DNA from: Promethearchaeati archaeon SRVP18_Atabeyarchaeia-1
GTDB taxonomy: Archaea > Asgardarchaeota > Atabeyarchaeia > Atabeyarchaeales > Atabeyarchaeaceae
Length of the DNA stretch: 64,000 nt
Assembly: GCA_037308085.1 (NCBI GenBank)
Contig: CP147779.1
Location: 256,001-320,000 of the forward strand
Direction: 5' to 3'
Part shown: in pieces, positions 2,293-11,612 of the stretch
Layout: the number at the start of each line of letters is the position of its first letter
Numbering within the stretch: position 1 is the first letter of the stretch
Made by a program: the position numbers and the translations under genes
The notes under the pieces: generated by a model
Seen by the model: only the letters and a program-made list of their open reading frames with translations
The model's database searches: none
Told to the model about the DNA's origin: nothing

Positions 2293-3315
2293 CTACTTGA
2301 AGTGCTCATAGCCCTTGGGCTCTATCTTCCTGACTCTGCCCCCTTCGGTCTTCAGGGTGACATGGCGTTCCCTCGTTGCTTCCCCTATCTTGTACAGAAT
2401 CCCTCCAGCTTGCTTTATGGCCTTCTGAGCCGCGTCCCACAATCCATGCTTGACCGTAACTACCAACTCATACTCTTCCCCCCCATAAAGCGCCAAGTCC
2501 AGCGGGTCAAGCCTGTTTTCATCAGCAAACCTGAGTACTTCCCGCGGTATGGGAATATCCTCGACACGGAACCCCACCTTGCTTGATCTTGCGAGCTCGT
2601 GCATAGCCCAAGCTAACCCATCAGAGCTATCTATCGACGAAGAAAGACACTTAGACTTGCCCAGGGCCACTCCCTCAAAGACCCGCGCCCTCGGCTCACA
2701 GACCGCCGCAACCAACCGCCGCCTAATTTTAGCATCAGCACGTTCTCTCCCGAGCAGGAGCTTCAACCCAGCCCCAGTCAAACCAAACTGACCAGTTACA
2801 GCCAACGCGTCCCCCACTGAAGCTCCGCTTCTCCTTACCAAGTTCGACTCCTCCGCGAAGCCAAAGGCCATCCCAGAAACTATTAGATCACCTGATTCAC
2901 CTGTGTCTCCTCCAACGACACATGCTCCAAACCTCTCAGCTTCAACCGAAACCCCGCGCATCAAGCTTAACGCATCCCCGACAAGGTAGCTGCGCGGCAG
3001 CCCCAGCGATATCATTATGCCCGTCGGCTGAACTCCCTTCGCGCCAAGATCACTGAAATTCATGGTTACAGCCTTCCTTCCAACCTGCCGCGGAGTCATC
3101 CCAGGCGGCACGTCCGTGGCGCCAACAAGCATGTCTGCCTTAACAACAACAACTCTGCCGCCCCCCAGTTGCACCGCCGCCGCATCGTCGCCAGTGGGGA
3201 GAGCTTGCCCTGGACAGGGCTTCAATAATCCCAAAATCTTCTTAACCACCGCGCGCTCCCCAGCATCACCCATTGACAATCCCGACAGATTTCTTGGCAA
3301 AACAATCTCCACCAC
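2293..3315 (-). CDS. thiL: Thiamine-monophosphate kinase
   Basis: GDDAA, NFSDLGAKG, VGGDT, DSSDGL and GGEEYEL motifs. Confidence 0.92.
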   Translation of the reverse strand: MVEIVLPRNLSGLSMGDAGERAVVKKILGLLKPCPGQALPTGDDAAAVQLGGGRVVVVKADMLVGATDVPPGMTPRQVGRKAVTMNFSDLGAKGVQPTGIMISLGLPRSYLVGDALSLMRGVSVEAERFGACVVGGDTGESGDLIVSGMAFGFAEESNLVRRSGASVGDALAVTGQFGLTGAGLKLLLGRERADAKIRRRLVAAVCEPRARVFEGVALGKSKCLSSSIDSSDGLAWAMHELARSSKVGFRVEDIPIPREVLRFADENRLDPLDLALYGGEEYELVVTVKHGLWDAAQKAIKQAGGILYKIGEATRERHVTLKTEGGRVRKIEPKGYEHFK

Positions 3316-3534
3316 ACGAGGACACTGCTCCCTTCATATTACTTTGGAGGATAAAAGAATTGACCCGTCAGAGATGCTTCGCCGTCAACTAATGTAACAA
3401 TGGTCGGGGTGGAACCATAGGCTCCGTCTTTGCGCAAGTGAATTCGACGCGACGGCAAATTGGAAAAACTTAAAAAGGAAGAAGCCGAGAATCCACTTAC
3501 AAGGACGATAGAAGGTCCCCGAGTCAGAACACGT

Positions 3535-3744
3535 GCGGAGGTAGCCAATCAAAGCCTTTCACGAAAAGGCTGGGCAAGGCCTGGTCAAAGGCGCAGGAAT
3601 GAGGATCGCCATTTATGGCGAGCATATGTCCTGTTCCGTAGGGATTATGATCCGCCGCAGGGTTGGTGGTGGCGGTTAGTCCCGTATCGTGGGTTCAAAT
3701 GCCGGGTTGGAGCCGCAACTCGGCTGAGACTCCCTCCCTCCGCA
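3535..3744 (+). tRNA. tRNA-Leu(GAG) with four BHB-like introns (3549-3578, 3605-3627, ~3646-3686, 3700-3730)
   Basis: Spliced product is GCGGAGGTAGCCAAGCCTGGTCAAAGGCGCAGGAATGAGGGTCCTGTTCCGTAGGGATTCGTGGGTTCAAATCCCTCCCTCCGCA, matching the archaeal Leu consensus. Each insert is a hairpin flanked by 3-nt bulges. Confidence 0.85.
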
Positions 3745-4095
3745 TCAGCTCTTCCGAATTCCTGCCTCTGAAGGACTACTGGCGTCCCTGCTGTGTGGCT
3801 GCTGGGCTGGTTGGTCGCCCGCTATTCTCCTTAACGAGGTTTCTCTCTCCTTTCCCTTCTTTGTGAGTCCTCTGTAGATATTGATTCTTCTGTGCCGACA
3901 TCTTCGTGGTAAGGGGTTGCGTGCCTGGAGCTTCGAAATACTGATAGGGGTTGGGCGTATGGAGCACCGTTGGGTAACTGTTATTTACTACACGCGTTTA
4001 TTCTTGAGGTGTCTCAGTCTTCGTGTTTGTTCTGACTACTGCAAGGGTATGACTGGTGGAGAACTGCTTCTGAGCTCGAGGTGCGGAGAGGAACG

Positions 4096-5742
4096 ATGGA
4101 TTTCGAGATAAGGGATAAGGATGTTTGTGGGCGTATTGGCGCGATCAGGACGAAGACTGGGTGCTTCGAGACGCCTGTTCTCTTGCCGGTTGTCAATCCT
4201 TTTGCGCTTAGGGGTCTCTCCCCGTCTGATCTTGAGAAGGAGTTCGGGTGCGAGGCAATAATAACAAATGCGTATCTTCTCTGGAAGCACTCTGCGAAGG
4301 AGTCTTTTGAGCGTGGCGTCCACAAACTGCTTGACTTCTCTAAAAGCATTATGACTGACTCGGGCGCATATCAACTATTAACCTATGGTGACGTGGGAGT
4401 GGAACCGAGGGAAATTGTAGCTTTCCAGGAGAATATAGGGAGCGATATTGCGGTCATCCTAGATGTTCCCACAGGAGGGTATGAGAAACGGGATCGTGCG
4501 GTTTTCACGGTCGACGAAACCATAAGGCGTGCCAAGGAACTGGGAAGCATAAAGAGAAGAGATGATATTCTGTGGGTCGGTCCAGTGCAGGGTGGAACAT
4601 ACCTAGATCTCGTGGAGCACTCCGCTAGGGAGATGGGGAAACTTGGTTTCGATATCTACGCCATAGGTAGCCCTACTCAGATCATGGAATCGTATAGGTT
4701 CGACAAGCTTGTTGACTTGGTGGCTACGGCCAAGTTCAATCTGCCGATAGAGAAACCAGTGCATCTTTTTGGGGCCGGGCATCCTTCGATCTTCTCCCTT
4801 GCTGTGGCACTTGGATGCGACATGTTTGACTCGGCGTCGTATGTTCTCTACGCTAAGGACGATAGGTATATGACTGGCTCTGGAACTCGAAGGCTAGGTG
4901 ATTTGAGGGAGAAGGTCTGCACCTGTCCCGCTTGCCAGAGGTTCGAGTTGAAGGAGATGTTGGCTCTCCCTGCGGATGAACGCTTCACCGTTGTCGCTCG
5001 GCATAACCTCTACCTGTGCTTGAATGAGATTCGGGTGATCAAGCAGGCAATACATGAGGGAAGGCTCTGGGAGCTTGTCGAAGTCAGAGCTAGAACGCAC
5101 CCACGGCTATTGGAGGGGCTGAAGAGGCTGCGGAAATATCGCAGACAACTTGAGAAATATAGCCCTATGGTTAAGCCCCATGCAATCTTCTACGCTGGTC
5201 CTGAATCATTGCTGAGACCAGAAGTAACTAGGCACCTAATGAAAATGAATAGGATATCGGCTCCATTGGGAACCGAGATTCTCGTAATACTCCCTGAGCC
5301 AGACAAGAAACCGTTCAGTAAGTCGAAGCAACAGAGAAAGTACAGAAGAATAATTAGGGAAGCTCTTGGTAGGGGACAGCTGGAGAAGATTCATATTTGC
5401 ACCGTATCGAAGTTTTTCGGTCTGATACCGATGGAGCTTGATGAAACCTATCCACTTGCTCAGCATGAGGCACCAAGAACACCTGATCTGGAATCAAGGA
5501 AAATGATATCACACTCAATCAAATCTTACGTAAGAAAACACAAGTATCGTGCTGTGCTGCTTCACGCTGATCACAAGGTTCTTGGCAAATGTGCGACTGA
5601 TAGTATCCTCAAATTGTGCGTGCAGCTTGGAATATTCGCCCTTCTAACTCCAAGAGAAGCGATTCACCCCAGAAGCAAGCAAGCCCTGGATGAGTTTAGA
5701 CACGCAATTATCGAGGCACAGAGTCACCTAGACGGAGAGTAA
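4096..5742 (+). CDS. tgtA: Archaeosine tRNA-guanine(15) transglycosylase
   Basis: ETPVLLPVVNP, MTDSGAYQ, HLFGAGHP, FDSASY and CTCPAC Zn motifs. Confidence 0.92.
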   Translation: MDFEIRDKDVCGRIGAIRTKTGCFETPVLLPVVNPFALRGLSPSDLEKEFGCEAIITNAYLLWKHSAKESFERGVHKLLDFSKSIMTDSGAYQLLTYGDVGVEPREIVAFQENIGSDIAVILDVPTGGYEKRDRAVFTVDETIRRAKELGSIKRRDDILWVGPVQGGTYLDLVEHSAREMGKLGFDIYAIGSPTQIMESYRFDKLVDLVATAKFNLPIEKPVHLFGAGHPSIFSLAVALGCDMFDSASYVLYAKDDRYMTGSGTRRLGDLREKVCTCPACQRFELKEMLALPADERFTVVARHNLYLCLNEIRVIKQAIHEGRLWELVEVRARTHPRLLEGLKRLRKYRRQLEKYSPMVKPHAIFYAGPESLLRPEVTRHLMKMNRISAPLGTEILVILPEPDKKPFSKSKQQRKYRRIIREALGRGQLEKIHICTVSKFFGLIPMELDETYPLAQHEAPRTPDLESRKMISHSIKSYVRKHKYRAVLLHADHKVLGKCATDSILKLCVQLGIFALLTPREAIHPRSKQALDEFRHAIIEAQSHLDGE

Positions 5743-6460: not shown

Positions 6461-7687
6461 TTAGAGCTTTTGAAGCCCCAAATCGATTTCCAGAGTTCTC
6501 CTCTTCTGCTGCGCCAAAGCACTTCTTGCGATCCCGAATTCACTTGCTTTCGCGTCTTGCCTCTTTAGGGCTTCTATTTTGGCCGTGGATTCTATGACGT
6601 TGCTCTCAACATAAACTCCGAGCTCTTTCATTTCAGCAAGCTCATGGAAACCTGCCTCGAACCCCATGGTATCGGCGTCAGGACCCAGAACAGACTCACC
6701 TTTTATCCCTGTGAGGAGAAGTATCGTCCTTATGATTCCATTGAGGTTAGGAGAGACCCGTGCTCCCCAGATTACCTTTGAGCTCGGCGCCATCCTTCTC
6801 GTTACGAGTTCGGCGACCCGGGTAGCTTCTGAGAGAGTCATATCCGCCCCACCTGAGACGTGAACTAGCGCACCGGTCGCCCCTGTGACGACAAGAGAAA
6901 GCAGAGGATTGTTTAGCGCTTCTTCAACTGATTTCTCGGCCCTGTTCTCCCCCTCAGCCTCCCCGATACCTATTATGGCTACACCGCCGACACCCATGAT
7001 TGATCTGATATCAGCAAAATCGAGGTTAATGAGAGACGGCAGCTTGATCGTTTCAGTGATTCCCTTAACCATGGTTGCAAGAACCTCATCGGCGACCGCA
7101 AAGGCCTCTTCAATCGGGTAGTCTGGCGCAACCTCCAGTAGCTTGTTATTATCCACCACTACAACCGTATCCACATGTTCCCTTAGTCTGCTGAGACCTT
7201 CACGCGCCCTTTGGTTCCTAAGTTCCCCTTCGACCTTGAAAGGTAGAGTCACAACCCCTATCACTATGGCCCCGACCTGCTTAGCTATCTCGGCCATAAT
7301 AGGAGCTCCGCCGGTTCCTGTTCCTCCCCCCAAACCGCATGTTACGAAAACCATGTCGGCGCCCTCTAACGCCTGCGAGAGAATCAGGCGACTCTCCTCG
7401 GCGGCAGCAGCGCCTAGCTCTGGATCTCCTCCAGCACCAAGACCACGGGTAGTTTTCTCCCCTATCAATATCTTCCTGTGAGCAGGAACCGAGTCTAGGT
7501 GCTGTTTGTCGGTATTTATCGCAATACACTCCGCGCCTTGAATCCCGAGATGCATCATTCGTTTAACAGTATTGTTGCCGCCTCCGCCAACGCCACAAAT
7601 AATAATCACTGCCTTGCCTGGCTCACGAACACTTGACGCTCTCTCTTCCTTCGCGTGTTTGATGGCATTCTGGATTATCGATTTCAT
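6461..7687 (-). CDS. ftsZ: Cell division protein FtsZ (FtsZ2-like context)
   Basis: GVGGGGNN, GGGTGTG signature and INLDFAD. Confidence 0.95.
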   Translation of the reverse strand: MKSIIQNAIKHAKEERASSVREPGKAVIIICGVGGGGNNTVKRMMHLGIQGAECIAINTDKQHLDSVPAHRKILIGEKTTRGLGAGGDPELGAAAAEESRLILSQALEGADMVFVTCGLGGGTGTGGAPIMAEIAKQVGAIVIGVVTLPFKVEGELRNQRAREGLSRLREHVDTVVVVDNNKLLEVAPDYPIEEAFAVADEVLATMVKGITETIKLPSLINLDFADIRSIMGVGGVAIIGIGEAEGENRAEKSVEEALNNPLLSLVVTGATGALVHVSGGADMTLSEATRVAELVTRRMAPSSKVIWGARVSPNLNGIIRTILLLTGIKGESVLGPDADTMGFEAGFHELAEMKELGVYVESNVIESTAKIEALKRQDAKASEFGIARSALAQQKRRTLEIDLGLQKL

Positions 7688-8611: not shown

Positions 8612-10153
8612 CTATATCTTTCTGTTGAACATTCGCCAAGTCAAGCACAGTGTCTTGGGGTGGGCTGCCTTACGCTCATCAAGTCTCCTCCTTGATGTGT
8701 TCACGGGTGCGTCGTGTAAGAGGCGCGGGGATTCGTGGGCCTCTCTAACTATTTCCTCCATTGCTTCGGCGAAGTTGTCTAGATCTTCTTTTGTGGCAGA
8801 CTCCGTTGGCTCTACCATTAGAGCTTCCTCGACTATTGATGGGAAGTATATTGTTGGTGCGTGGATCCCATGGTCAAGCAGCCTCTTTGCAACATCCAGC
8901 GTCGTGACTCCAGTTTCCTGTTTGAGTTTTTCACCGCTAAGCACTGATTCATGCTTTCTCGGTTTCTCTCGCAGTGTCGGTTTCAGAACAAGAAGTTTTG
9001 ACAACTTGGACGCTATGTAATTACTGTTCAGGACAGCGATGCTGGCTGCTTCGGCGAGTCCTTCTGCGCCCATTGTGAGTATGTACGTGAATGCTCTGAC
9101 CAGCACGCCGAAGTTGCCATAGAACCCCTTGACTTTTCCAATTGACTGCGGCCGGTCATAATCGAAGTAGTAGTGCTCTCCGTCAAATTCCACGGTGGGT
9201 ATTGGAAGGAATCTCTCCAGCTGCTTGGTCACTCCTACTGGACCAGCTCCTGGTCCTCCTCCTCCATGAGGTGTGGAGAACGTCTTGTGCAGATTGGTGT
9301 GGACAATATCGAACCCCATGTCGCCTGGTCGTATTCTGCCCACGATCGCATTAAGGTTCGCGCCATCGTAGTAGAGAAGCCCACCGGCACCGTGCACCAG
9401 TTCGGCTATTTCCCCAATATCTTCTTCGAAGAGCCCCAGCGTGTTGGGGTTCGTTAGCATCAGACCTGCCGTCTTATCCGATATTGCTGCCTTAAGGGCA
9501 TCGATGTTCATGCATCCTTTCTCGTTAGACGGAATCGTGACTACATTGAAGCCGCCCATGGCCGCGCTTGAAGGGTTTGTGCCGTGAGCCGAGTCTGGTA
9601 CCAAGATATCGGTTCTTTTTCCAAGTTCGTGGTTTAATCGGTGGTATGCTCTTATGATCTGGATCCCGGTGAATTCGCCATTTGCCCCCGCGGCGGGTTG
9701 GACGGATACGCGGTACATACCCATGATTTCTGCTAGCCATTTCTCTAGTTTAAAGATTATTTCGAGTGACCCTTGAACGGTGCTCAAATCCTGGTACGGG
9801 TGGATTTCATTCAGCTTCTCGAGGCCTGCTATCTGATCATTGATTTTTGGGTTGTATTTCATCGTGCATGAGCCGAGCGGATAGAATCCTGAATCTACGC
9901 CGTAGCTCATCTGTGATAGCCTAACGAAGTGCCGTGCAACTTGTACCTCGGATAATTCGGGGAGCGCAGGAGGTTTTTGCCTACGCATAGTGGAAGGAAC
10001 TAGCTTCCCCGGGTCCCCAACAAGCCTTTTCACTTCTTCATCGATTCTAGGTAGTTTGAACCCCGTTCTTCCTTCTTCTCCCATTTGAAAGATGAGAGGC
10101 TCATCCCACGATGCCTGTCTGAAAACACTTTTCTTAATCGTCATCTTGTTCAC
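8612..10153 (-). CDS. gcvPB: Glycine dehydrogenase (decarboxylating) subunit 2
   Basis: PLGSCTMKYNP, SAHGTNP and NLHKTFSTPHGGGGPG (PLP Lys). Confidence 0.95.
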   Translation of the reverse strand: MNKMTIKKSVFRQASWDEPLIFQMGEEGRTGFKLPRIDEEVKRLVGDPGKLVPSTMRRQKPPALPELSEVQVARHFVRLSQMSYGVDSGFYPLGSCTMKYNPKINDQIAGLEKLNEIHPYQDLSTVQGSLEIIFKLEKWLAEIMGMYRVSVQPAAGANGEFTGIQIIRAYHRLNHELGKRTDILVPDSAHGTNPSSAAMGGFNVVTIPSNEKGCMNIDALKAAISDKTAGLMLTNPNTLGLFEEDIGEIAELVHGAGGLLYYDGANLNAIVGRIRPGDMGFDIVHTNLHKTFSTPHGGGGPGAGPVGVTKQLERFLPIPTVEFDGEHYYFDYDRPQSIGKVKGFYGNFGVLVRAFTYILTMGAEGLAEAASIAVLNSNYIASKLSKLLVLKPTLREKPRKHESVLSGEKLKQETGVTTLDVAKRLLDHGIHAPTIYFPSIVEEALMVEPTESATKEDLDNFAEAMEEIVREAHESPRLLHDAPVNTSRRRLDERKAAHPKTLCLTWRMFNRKI

Positions 10154-10166
10154 CTTTCCTTAAGAT

Positions 10167-11612
10167 TCACTCTTTTCTCAAGTGCGTTTGGCTTTCCTGG
10201 CCTCTTTCTATTCTGTTGGAACCTGCCATGACCTCCTCAGAAGCTTCAACCAGATTCTCTATGTCCGCCTTTGAGTGGATCTCGGTGACGCATAGCAGTG
10301 CAGTATTTCCAAACTCCGGGAACTCCTTATCAATTGGGTGACCACCTTGAATGCCTCTTCTAAGGAGTTCGCCGTTGTAGACGCTTATGGGTTTGCCCGA
10401 TTCATCAGTACTCAACGTGAATTCCTTGAAGTGCGCTCCTTCGATCACCGGCACTCTTAATCCCTTTATCTTGCTCAGTCTGCGGATTGCGTAGTTCGTG
10501 TCTGCAAGGATGAGTTCTCCGAGTTGTCTGAACCCCTTGGCCCCGAGAAGAGAAGAATAGACCAACGCTGCTACCGCACATAGTGCTTCGTTGCTTGTTA
10601 TGTTCGATGTCGCTCTCTCTCTTCGTATATGCTGTTCCCTTGTCTGAAGGGTTAATACGAAGCCAGTGTCATTACCTTCAAGCGTTGTTGTCATACCTAC
10701 GAGCCGACCAGGCACTTGTCTTATCAGCTTCAGATCCTCCCTGCAGCCAAGTATTCCAAGGAGCGGACCACCGAAGCTCATATGGTTACCAAGCGGTTGG
10801 CCTTCGCCTATCGCTATGTCAGCATCGTACTCCCCCGGGGGGCGGATTACTCCAAGCGATGTGGGATCTACCCCAGCTATGAGAAGGCTTCCCCGCTCAT
10901 GAGCTATCTTTGAGATATCATCGACCTGTTCCTCTAAGAACCCGAAGTAGGACGGGTTCTCAACGTATACGGCTGCTACGTCCTCGGACAACTTGTCCTT
11001 AAGAGACTGAAGGGATAGTTGACCCGTTTTCTCTTGTGGCGATATTTCCTCAACTTTTATTCCAGAACCCTCGACATAGGTTTTCAGTACTTTAAACCTA
11101 TCCGGATGTATGATGTGTGGAATCAGAATGATGCTCCTTTGCGTCACCCTTTTTGCAAGCAGAGCCGCTTCTCCAAGTGCTGTCGACCAGTCATAGAGTG
11201 AACTGTTGACGACCTCCATGTCCAGCAACTCAGCCATGACGCTTTGGTACTCAAAAAGAGCTTGCAGAATGCCTTGCGCAATTTCAGGTTGATAGGGCGT
11301 GTACGATGTCAGGAATTCGCTTCGACTGACAATCATATCAACTAGGGCAGGTACGTAGTGAGGCCACACGCCAGCGCCCAAGAAGGTTGGCATCTCGTGT
11401 ATGGTTCTGTTCTTGAGTATGATCGAGTTCAGAATGCGCCGGACTTCAACTTCGGAATGCGAAGATGGCATTCCCCTTAGCTCATGCCTCGGGATGCTTT
11501 TAGGTATATCACGGTAGAGTTCTTCGACGCTCTCGACGCCGATTTCCTTCAGCATCTCTCTCATGATCTTCTCGGAGGAGTTGGGAATATAGGGGTTCGA
11601 ATCAGGGATCAT
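10167..11612 (-). CDS. gcvPA: Glycine dehydrogenase (decarboxylating) subunit 1
   Basis: FLTSYTPYQPEIAQG and TREQHIRRERATSNI. Confidence 0.95.
   Translation of the reverse strand: MIPDSNPYIPNSSEKIMREMLKEIGVESVEELYRDIPKSIPRHELRGMPSSHSEVEVRRILNSIILKNRTIHEMPTFLGAGVWPHYVPALVDMIVSRSEFLTSYTPYQPEIAQGILQALFEYQSVMAELLDMEVVNSSLYDWSTALGEAALLAKRVTQRSIILIPHIIHPDRFKVLKTYVEGSGIKVEEISPQEKTGQLSLQSLKDKLSEDVAAVYVENPSYFGFLEEQVDDISKIAHERGSLLIAGVDPTSLGVIRPPGEYDADIAIGEGQPLGNHMSFGGPLLGILGCREDLKLIRQVPGRLVGMTTTLEGNDTGFVLTLQTREQHIRRERATSNITSNEALCAVAALVYSSLLGAKGFRQLGELILADTNYAIRRLSKIKGLRVPVIEGAHFKEFTLSTDESGKPISVYNGELLRRGIQGGHPIDKEFPEFGNTALLCVTEIHSKADIENLVEASEEVMAGSNRIERGQESQTHLRKE

Follow-up and report, generated by a model that had tools for sequence, protein, structure and literature searches.

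We found that the plus strand of the window (the whole 64,000-nucleotide stretch of Atabeyarchaeia-1 DNA analysed here) carries at positions 3535-3744 a tRNA-Leu(GAG) gene that is interrupted by four introns. This is very likely (probability about 0.92) the functional, single-copy tRNA-Leu(GAG) of Atabeyarchaeia-1, with its four introns cut by a two-subunit splicing endonuclease (EndA) and its exons joined by RtcB. We read it as a working gene because no second copy was found, the exons are conserved and the spliced product is standard. The gene closes a gap in the tRNA complement of a complete genome from a soil Asgard archaeon.

Gene structure, identity and setting

Removal of all four introns, which account for 125 of the 210 nt (59.5%), yields an 85-nt mature tRNA-Leu(GAG) (Table 1). 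The anatomy proposed in the sequence-only reading, in which inserts of 30, 23, about 41 and 31 nt surround an 85-nt Leu tRNA and roughly 60% of the gene is intron, proved exact to the base. ARAGORN likewise assigned the spliced product as tRNA-Leu(gag) with a normal cloverleaf. After splicing, the tRNA has the conserved D- and T-loop bases, the GAG anticodon and an archaeal class II tRNA's long variable arm, as well as A73, A47c, G47d and U47h (hand count against PMC9976931), which together make up the Leu identity set in Haloferax (PMC9976931). Under no-intron settings ARAGORN saw a tRNA only with all four inserts out, and among insert-retaining versions only the one that kept just the 37/38 intron was still called Leu, which required the program's intron option.

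Aligning the gene under BHB constraints to a compact, unrelated Leu tRNA recovered the same four junctions. In addition, the mature tRNA aligned gap-free to the Leu-GAG genes L082, L085, L087 and L090 of other archaea, which are 85 nt long and intron-free; these four genes lack all four introns at the corresponding junctions and have A32, a base of exon 2, in common with it. Leu-GAG genes of Bathyarchaeia (L078, L080, L083, L086 and L091) carry one or two BHB introns, located in the variable loop, in the T-stem or at 59/60. The T-stem of the Atabeyarchaeia-1 tRNA contains a U.U mismatch, which is common to its relatives (G001 and L072 copy B, described below) and to several Arg tRNAs of the same genome and does not signal decay.

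Table 1. Coordinates of the tRNA-Leu(GAG) gene, its neighbours and further tRNA genes of Atabeyarchaeia-1 (window positions unless given as C1)
Feature	Position	Strand	Details
thiL, thiamine-phosphate kinase	2293..3315	-	TIGR01379, E 8e-73; syntenic in three relatives
Probable BRE and TATA box	3462..3477	+	identified by eye, 58 nt upstream of the tRNA
Exon 1	3535..3548	+	tRNA positions 1-14 (5' strands of acceptor stem and D-stem)
Intron 1	3549..3578	+	30 nt; position 14/15, directly before G15
Exon 2	3579..3604	+	positions 15-37; anticodon GAG at 3601-3603
Intron 2	3605..3627	+	23 nt; canonical 37/38
Exon 3	3628..3645	+	positions 38-47h; Leu identity positions A47c, G47d, U47h (numbering counted by hand)
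Intron 3	3646..3686	+	41 nt; 47h/47i, the foot of the variable arm
Exon 4	3687..3699	+	47i-59 (T-arm 5' strand and T-loop)
Intron 4	3700..3730	+	31 nt; position 59/60
Exon 5	3731..3744	+	60-73; discriminator A73; CCA not encoded
tgtA, archaeosine tRNA-guanine(15) transglycosylase	4081..5742	+	TIGR00432, E 2e-167; syntenic in three relatives
Initiator tRNA-Met	C1 463981-463772	-	210 nt; five inserts; outside the window; not in published list
Ser-CGA	C1 637349-637151	-	3 introns; unlisted
Ile-GAT	C1 447829-448038	+	about 4 introns; unlisted
His-GTG	C1 about 464422-464245	-	about 3 introns; unlisted
Ile-TAT	C1 36840-37083	+	4 or more introns; unlisted

The sequence-only reading had raised the question of another Leu-GAG gene elsewhere in the genome. 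A genome-wide alignment allowing long insertions found no second Leu-GAG gene in the complete genome, and the same alignment retrieved four other Leu genes (CAA, CAG, TAA and TAG). The first exon occurs only once in the genome, and 42% of the Leu codons in long ORFs are CTC or CTT. The expectation that standard annotation would miss the gene was borne out: ARAGORN and Rfam gave no match when run on the raw window, ARAGORN run on the genome missed it even at a relaxed score, and it is absent among the 40 Atabeyarchaeia-1 entries of the published tRNAscan-SE list (PMC11291895, Supplementary Data 4).

The gene sits between thiL and tgtA and is preceded by a probable archaeal promoter (Table 1); a promoter scan that found nothing at the locus was a bacterial one, not applicable to an archaeal host. 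In all four relatives tgtA, which encodes the enzyme modifying G15, comes after the tRNA, and intron 1 lies directly before G15. A functional link to tgtA is no more than a suggestion: the gene order is conserved, but there was no evidence of co-transcription. The window also contains an FtsZ gene (6461-7687, minus strand) and two glycine cleavage P-protein subunits (8612-11612, minus strand), and it spans positions 256001-320000 of a single contig of 2,808,651 bp.

Splice junctions and candidate splicing enzymes

We assessed the central helix at each junction and obtained the same pairing as the sequence-only reading, with 3/4, 3/4, 3/4 and 4/4 pairs for introns 1-4. Only intron 4 has the strict BHB motif (a fully paired 4-bp central helix plus a flanking helix), combining its 4/4 central helix with a 3-bp exon helix and a 9-bp intron helix, and introns 1-3 fall in the relaxed class. 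In intron 1 the outer pair is an A.A mismatch, which is kept in all four orthologues, and there is no exon-side helix; intron 2 has an A35.G mismatch in its central helix, with both flanking helices present. When each intron was shuffled with its exact boundaries fixed, the probability of a central helix at least as good was 0.065, 0.175, 0.21 and 0.017 for introns 1-4 (joint probability about 4e-5), and with the intron-side helix added the values were 0.03, 0.0002, 0.017 and <0.0002. Folding of the whole precursor (z = -2.85) gave a cloverleaf frame bearing four hairpins. Against our model, three of the four junctions are imperfect compared to mostly 4/4 pairing elsewhere in the genome, where 46 of the 59 well-resolved tRNA introns pair 4/4 by a method that leans to good pairing.

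Intron 3 can also pair in a competing 7-bp register, whose stability exceeds that of the splice-competent one by 6 kcal/mol, and excision may require the endonuclease to refold the precursor out of this most stable register. The gene might instead work with its variable-arm insert cut after 3649 and after 3682 (33 nt), generating a 93-nt tRNA with a variable region 8 nt longer, although we regard this as improbable. That register lies in the lowest-energy fold, inside the 7-bp helix; its central helix is fully paired (4/4) in each of the four orthologues, where L072 copy B shows one compensatory change, and its product is accepted by ARAGORN. However, its junction bases score -8.8 against a profile of 59 introns from the genome (range -4.4 to 7.6) compared to +1.4 for the standard register, which outscores it in all orthologues too, matches the intron-free homologues exactly in length and does not disturb the foot of the arm, U47h included. 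We therefore kept 3646-3686, because the junction bases of the alternative score far outside the genome's range. The variable-arm junction 3643-3683, of the same length, was also considered and rejected in favour of 3646-3686, as it pairs only 2/4 and its 3' part varies among orthologues.

The Atabeyarchaeia-1 genome contains two EndA paralogues and RtcB (E 2e-175). The EndA alpha subunit (L009:1474-2103) most resembles the catalytic subunit of Aeropyrum pernix (E 5e-46), keeps the catalytic Tyr, His and Lys, and has an ungapped insert loop in which K64/K66 match Aeropyrum K44/R46. The second paralogue lacks the catalytic His and is likely the structural subunit. In the Aeropyrum enzyme the loop and K44 confer broad specificity (PMC3241643), and the sequence of the Atabeyarchaeia-1 enzyme makes a broad-specificity endonuclease likely here as well. 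A relaxed-specificity endonuclease had been proposed earlier from the 3-of-4 pairing, and this part of the argument did not hold up as well: such pairing alone is weak evidence because it was seen in 6-21% of shuffles and because a preprint rejects the relaxed BHB class as too permissive for use as a test (bioRxiv 10.64898/2026.10.13.758758). The enzyme loop together with the outer 14/15 mismatch found in all four orthologues is better support than the pairing alone.

Given the features of the EndA paralogues and the presence of RtcB, it is most likely that an (alpha-beta)2 enzyme cuts the four introns and that RtcB joins the exons. The gene would be transcribed into a 210-nt precursor folding with four intron hairpins, and the two-subunit EndA, probably in an (alpha-beta)2 assembly, would cut each intron at BHB-like junctions and accept a single mismatch in the central helix of three of the introns. 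RtcB would then ligate the exons, five in all, to give a standard class II tRNA of 85 nt for reading CUC and CUU. The four cuts could occur without a fixed order, because each central helix is formed by contiguous precursor sequence. The same preprint states that splicing in an Asgard cell has yet to be demonstrated for any of the inserts it newly describes (bioRxiv 10.64898/2026.10.13.758758). Because a single transcript offers four sites, one a full BHB and three relaxed, tRNA-Leu(GAG) is a ready substrate for a first Asgard EndA assay.

Orthologues and intron turnover

We compared the gene with three syntenic orthologues, from G001, from Atabeyarchaeia-2 (G002, the nearest same-family genome) and from a metagenomic relative (L072 copy B, Ga0315309_1000091). 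The mature sequence is identical in G001, has 2 base differences in Atabeyarchaeia-2 (both in the T-stem, with pairing kept) and 3 in L072 copy B. In contrast, the identity of neighbouring proteins among the four genomes is only 65-77%, and intron interiors have diverged. The orthologues carry 2, 3 and 4 introns, respectively: G001 at 14/15 and 47h/47i; Atabeyarchaeia-2 at 14/15, 47h/47i and 59/60; and L072 copy B at 14/15, 28/29 (anticodon stem), a variable-loop site and 47h/47i. With the Atabeyarchaeia-1 set (14/15, 37/38, 47h/47i and 59/60), six intron positions are found across the four genomes, two of which (14/15 and 47h/47i) are common to all.

The 14/15 intron is present in G001, G002 (22 nt) and L072 copy B (33 nt), and the 47h/47i intron measures 32, 32 and 54 nt in the three orthologues. 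The 59/60 intron is shared with G002 (34 nt, with a different interior) and is missing in G001 and L072 copy B. The 37/38 intron is probably a recent gain because it is absent in all three orthologues, a judgement drawn from four genomes and no tree. Where intron 2 (G001 and G002) or intron 4 (G001) is missing, the exons meet exactly at the predicted points. A near-invariant mature sequence combined with differing intron sets in syntenic orthologues indicates a working gene with intron turnover.

It is least probable of all that the gene is a decayed copy or pseudogene with unspliced insertions and that Leu CUC/CUU is read by another tRNA, since the imperfect BHBs, the T-stem U.U mismatch and the existence in a relative of a decayed Leu-GAG (L072 copy A) beside an intact one would fit such decay, but no other GAG gene was found in the complete genome, the exons are near-invariant in four genomes whose neighbouring proteins have diverged as far as stated above, and splice-site geometry is kept at all inserts.

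In L072 (11939-7926, minus strand) Leu-GAG is duplicated, with the decayed copy adjoining thiL and the intact four-intron copy lying 3.6 kb off. The stretch between the two copies encodes a LAGLIDADG-like protein of 361 aa (PF14528, E 3e-6) and also contains an ORF of 277 aa that has no Pfam match. The two copies have related yet different intron sets, offering a possible lead on intron arrival.

The published work on these genomes (PMC11291895) covers the same Atabeyarchaeia-1 genome with matching tRNA coordinates and lists the Atabeyarchaeia-2 orthologue with three introns. It differs from our analysis in putting the middle intron of that orthologue at 37/38 (42 nt), whereas comparison placed it in the variable arm (32 nt). 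We rejected the 42-nt 37/38 intron because it would disrupt the anticodon stem and delete the long arm.

Other Atabeyarchaeia-1 tRNA genes and comparison with known systems

At least six tRNA genes of Atabeyarchaeia-1 are unlisted, namely tRNA-Leu(GAG) and five more (Table 1). Inserts in the initiator tRNA-Met follow mature bases 15, 31, 39, 61 and about 65, and its spliced 75-nt form is called tRNA-Met(cat); insert 5 pairs 3/4 only while insert 4 is still present, which hints at a cutting order. The D-loop insert of Ile-TAT is about 80 nt long and may be two inserts or nested ones. Three published entries look wrong after splicing: His-GTG at C1 366350-366154 reads Val-GAC, Pro-TGG at C1 808245-808089 reads Thr-GGT, and Gly-ACC at C1 2474261-2474396 reads Thr-CGT. 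With the references used, no separate Ile2-CAT or Asp-GTC gene was found in the genome, and a tRNA-Asp search with altered Glu/Gly references gave nothing convincing. At C1 about 1599900-1599735 (minus strand) lies a tRNA-like gene whose acceptor ends pair and which has a T-loop as well as a hairpin insert of the 59/60 type.

The sequence-only reading had described 14/15 and variable-arm sites as rare, which is not so in this organism: Thr-GGT, Ile-GAT, Ser-CGA and Gly-GCC are interrupted at 14/15 too, and introns in the variable region are present in about ten genes. Position 14/15 is not among the intron positions named in PMC4090602.

Valentin-Alvarado et al. 2024 (PMC11291895) report that 92-95% of the tRNA genes in these genomes contain introns, and the four-intron tRNAs on their list include Freyarchaeia Leu-GAG, Ile2-CAT and Arg-TCT and Atabeyarchaeia-2 Trp. 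A 2026 census of Asgard tRNAs gives an average of 2.2 inserts per gene and up to five, and describes repeated gains, D-arm inserts that are often missed and EndA present mostly as two paralogues (bioRxiv 10.64898/2026.10.13.758758). The suggestion that four introns go beyond what is known is thus not supported. Four- or five-intron tRNAs have already been reported for these archaea, and the gene is neither a record nor a change to the known picture. What is new is small, consisting of the unlisted gene, the misplaced Atabeyarchaeia-2 intron and the five further unlisted genes.

Because the census covers only genes detected by tRNAscan-SE, so that fully disrupted genes would be invisible, tRNA-Leu(GAG) probably falls in its blind spot and is absent there (bioRxiv 10.64898/2026.10.13.758758). 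Whole genes, not just single introns, are lost from standard annotation, so intron counts for the lineage are underestimates. We would put at even odds a broader interpretation, in which the gene marks a tail made up of those Asgard tRNA genes that are split most heavily, which the published list lacks and the census probably lacks too, and in which intron 3 may need refolding by the endonuclease. If this is true, the locus, with its six intron positions across four relatives and its nearly invariant mature sequence, would serve as a compact test both for intron gain and for the specificity of Asgard EndA.

Multi-intron tRNAs of Thermoproteales have a maximum of three introns (PMC4033280), in agreement with the figure given in the sequence-only reading. 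Introns in Thermoproteales recur across tRNAs, whereas none of the four introns studied here shares a 14-mer with any other part of the Atabeyarchaeia-1 genome. We therefore see no sign of recent intron copying between tRNA genes, in line with the preprint (bioRxiv 10.64898/2026.10.13.758758). Transposed intron families of the Thermoproteales type were considered and rejected, as no near-identical counterparts of these four introns were seen in other tRNA genes. The gene and its candidate enzyme nevertheless resemble Thermoproteales tRNAs and the crenarchaeal (alpha-beta)2 EndA in their non-canonical intron positions, relaxed motifs, and the same loop and lysine (PMC4033280, PMC3241643).
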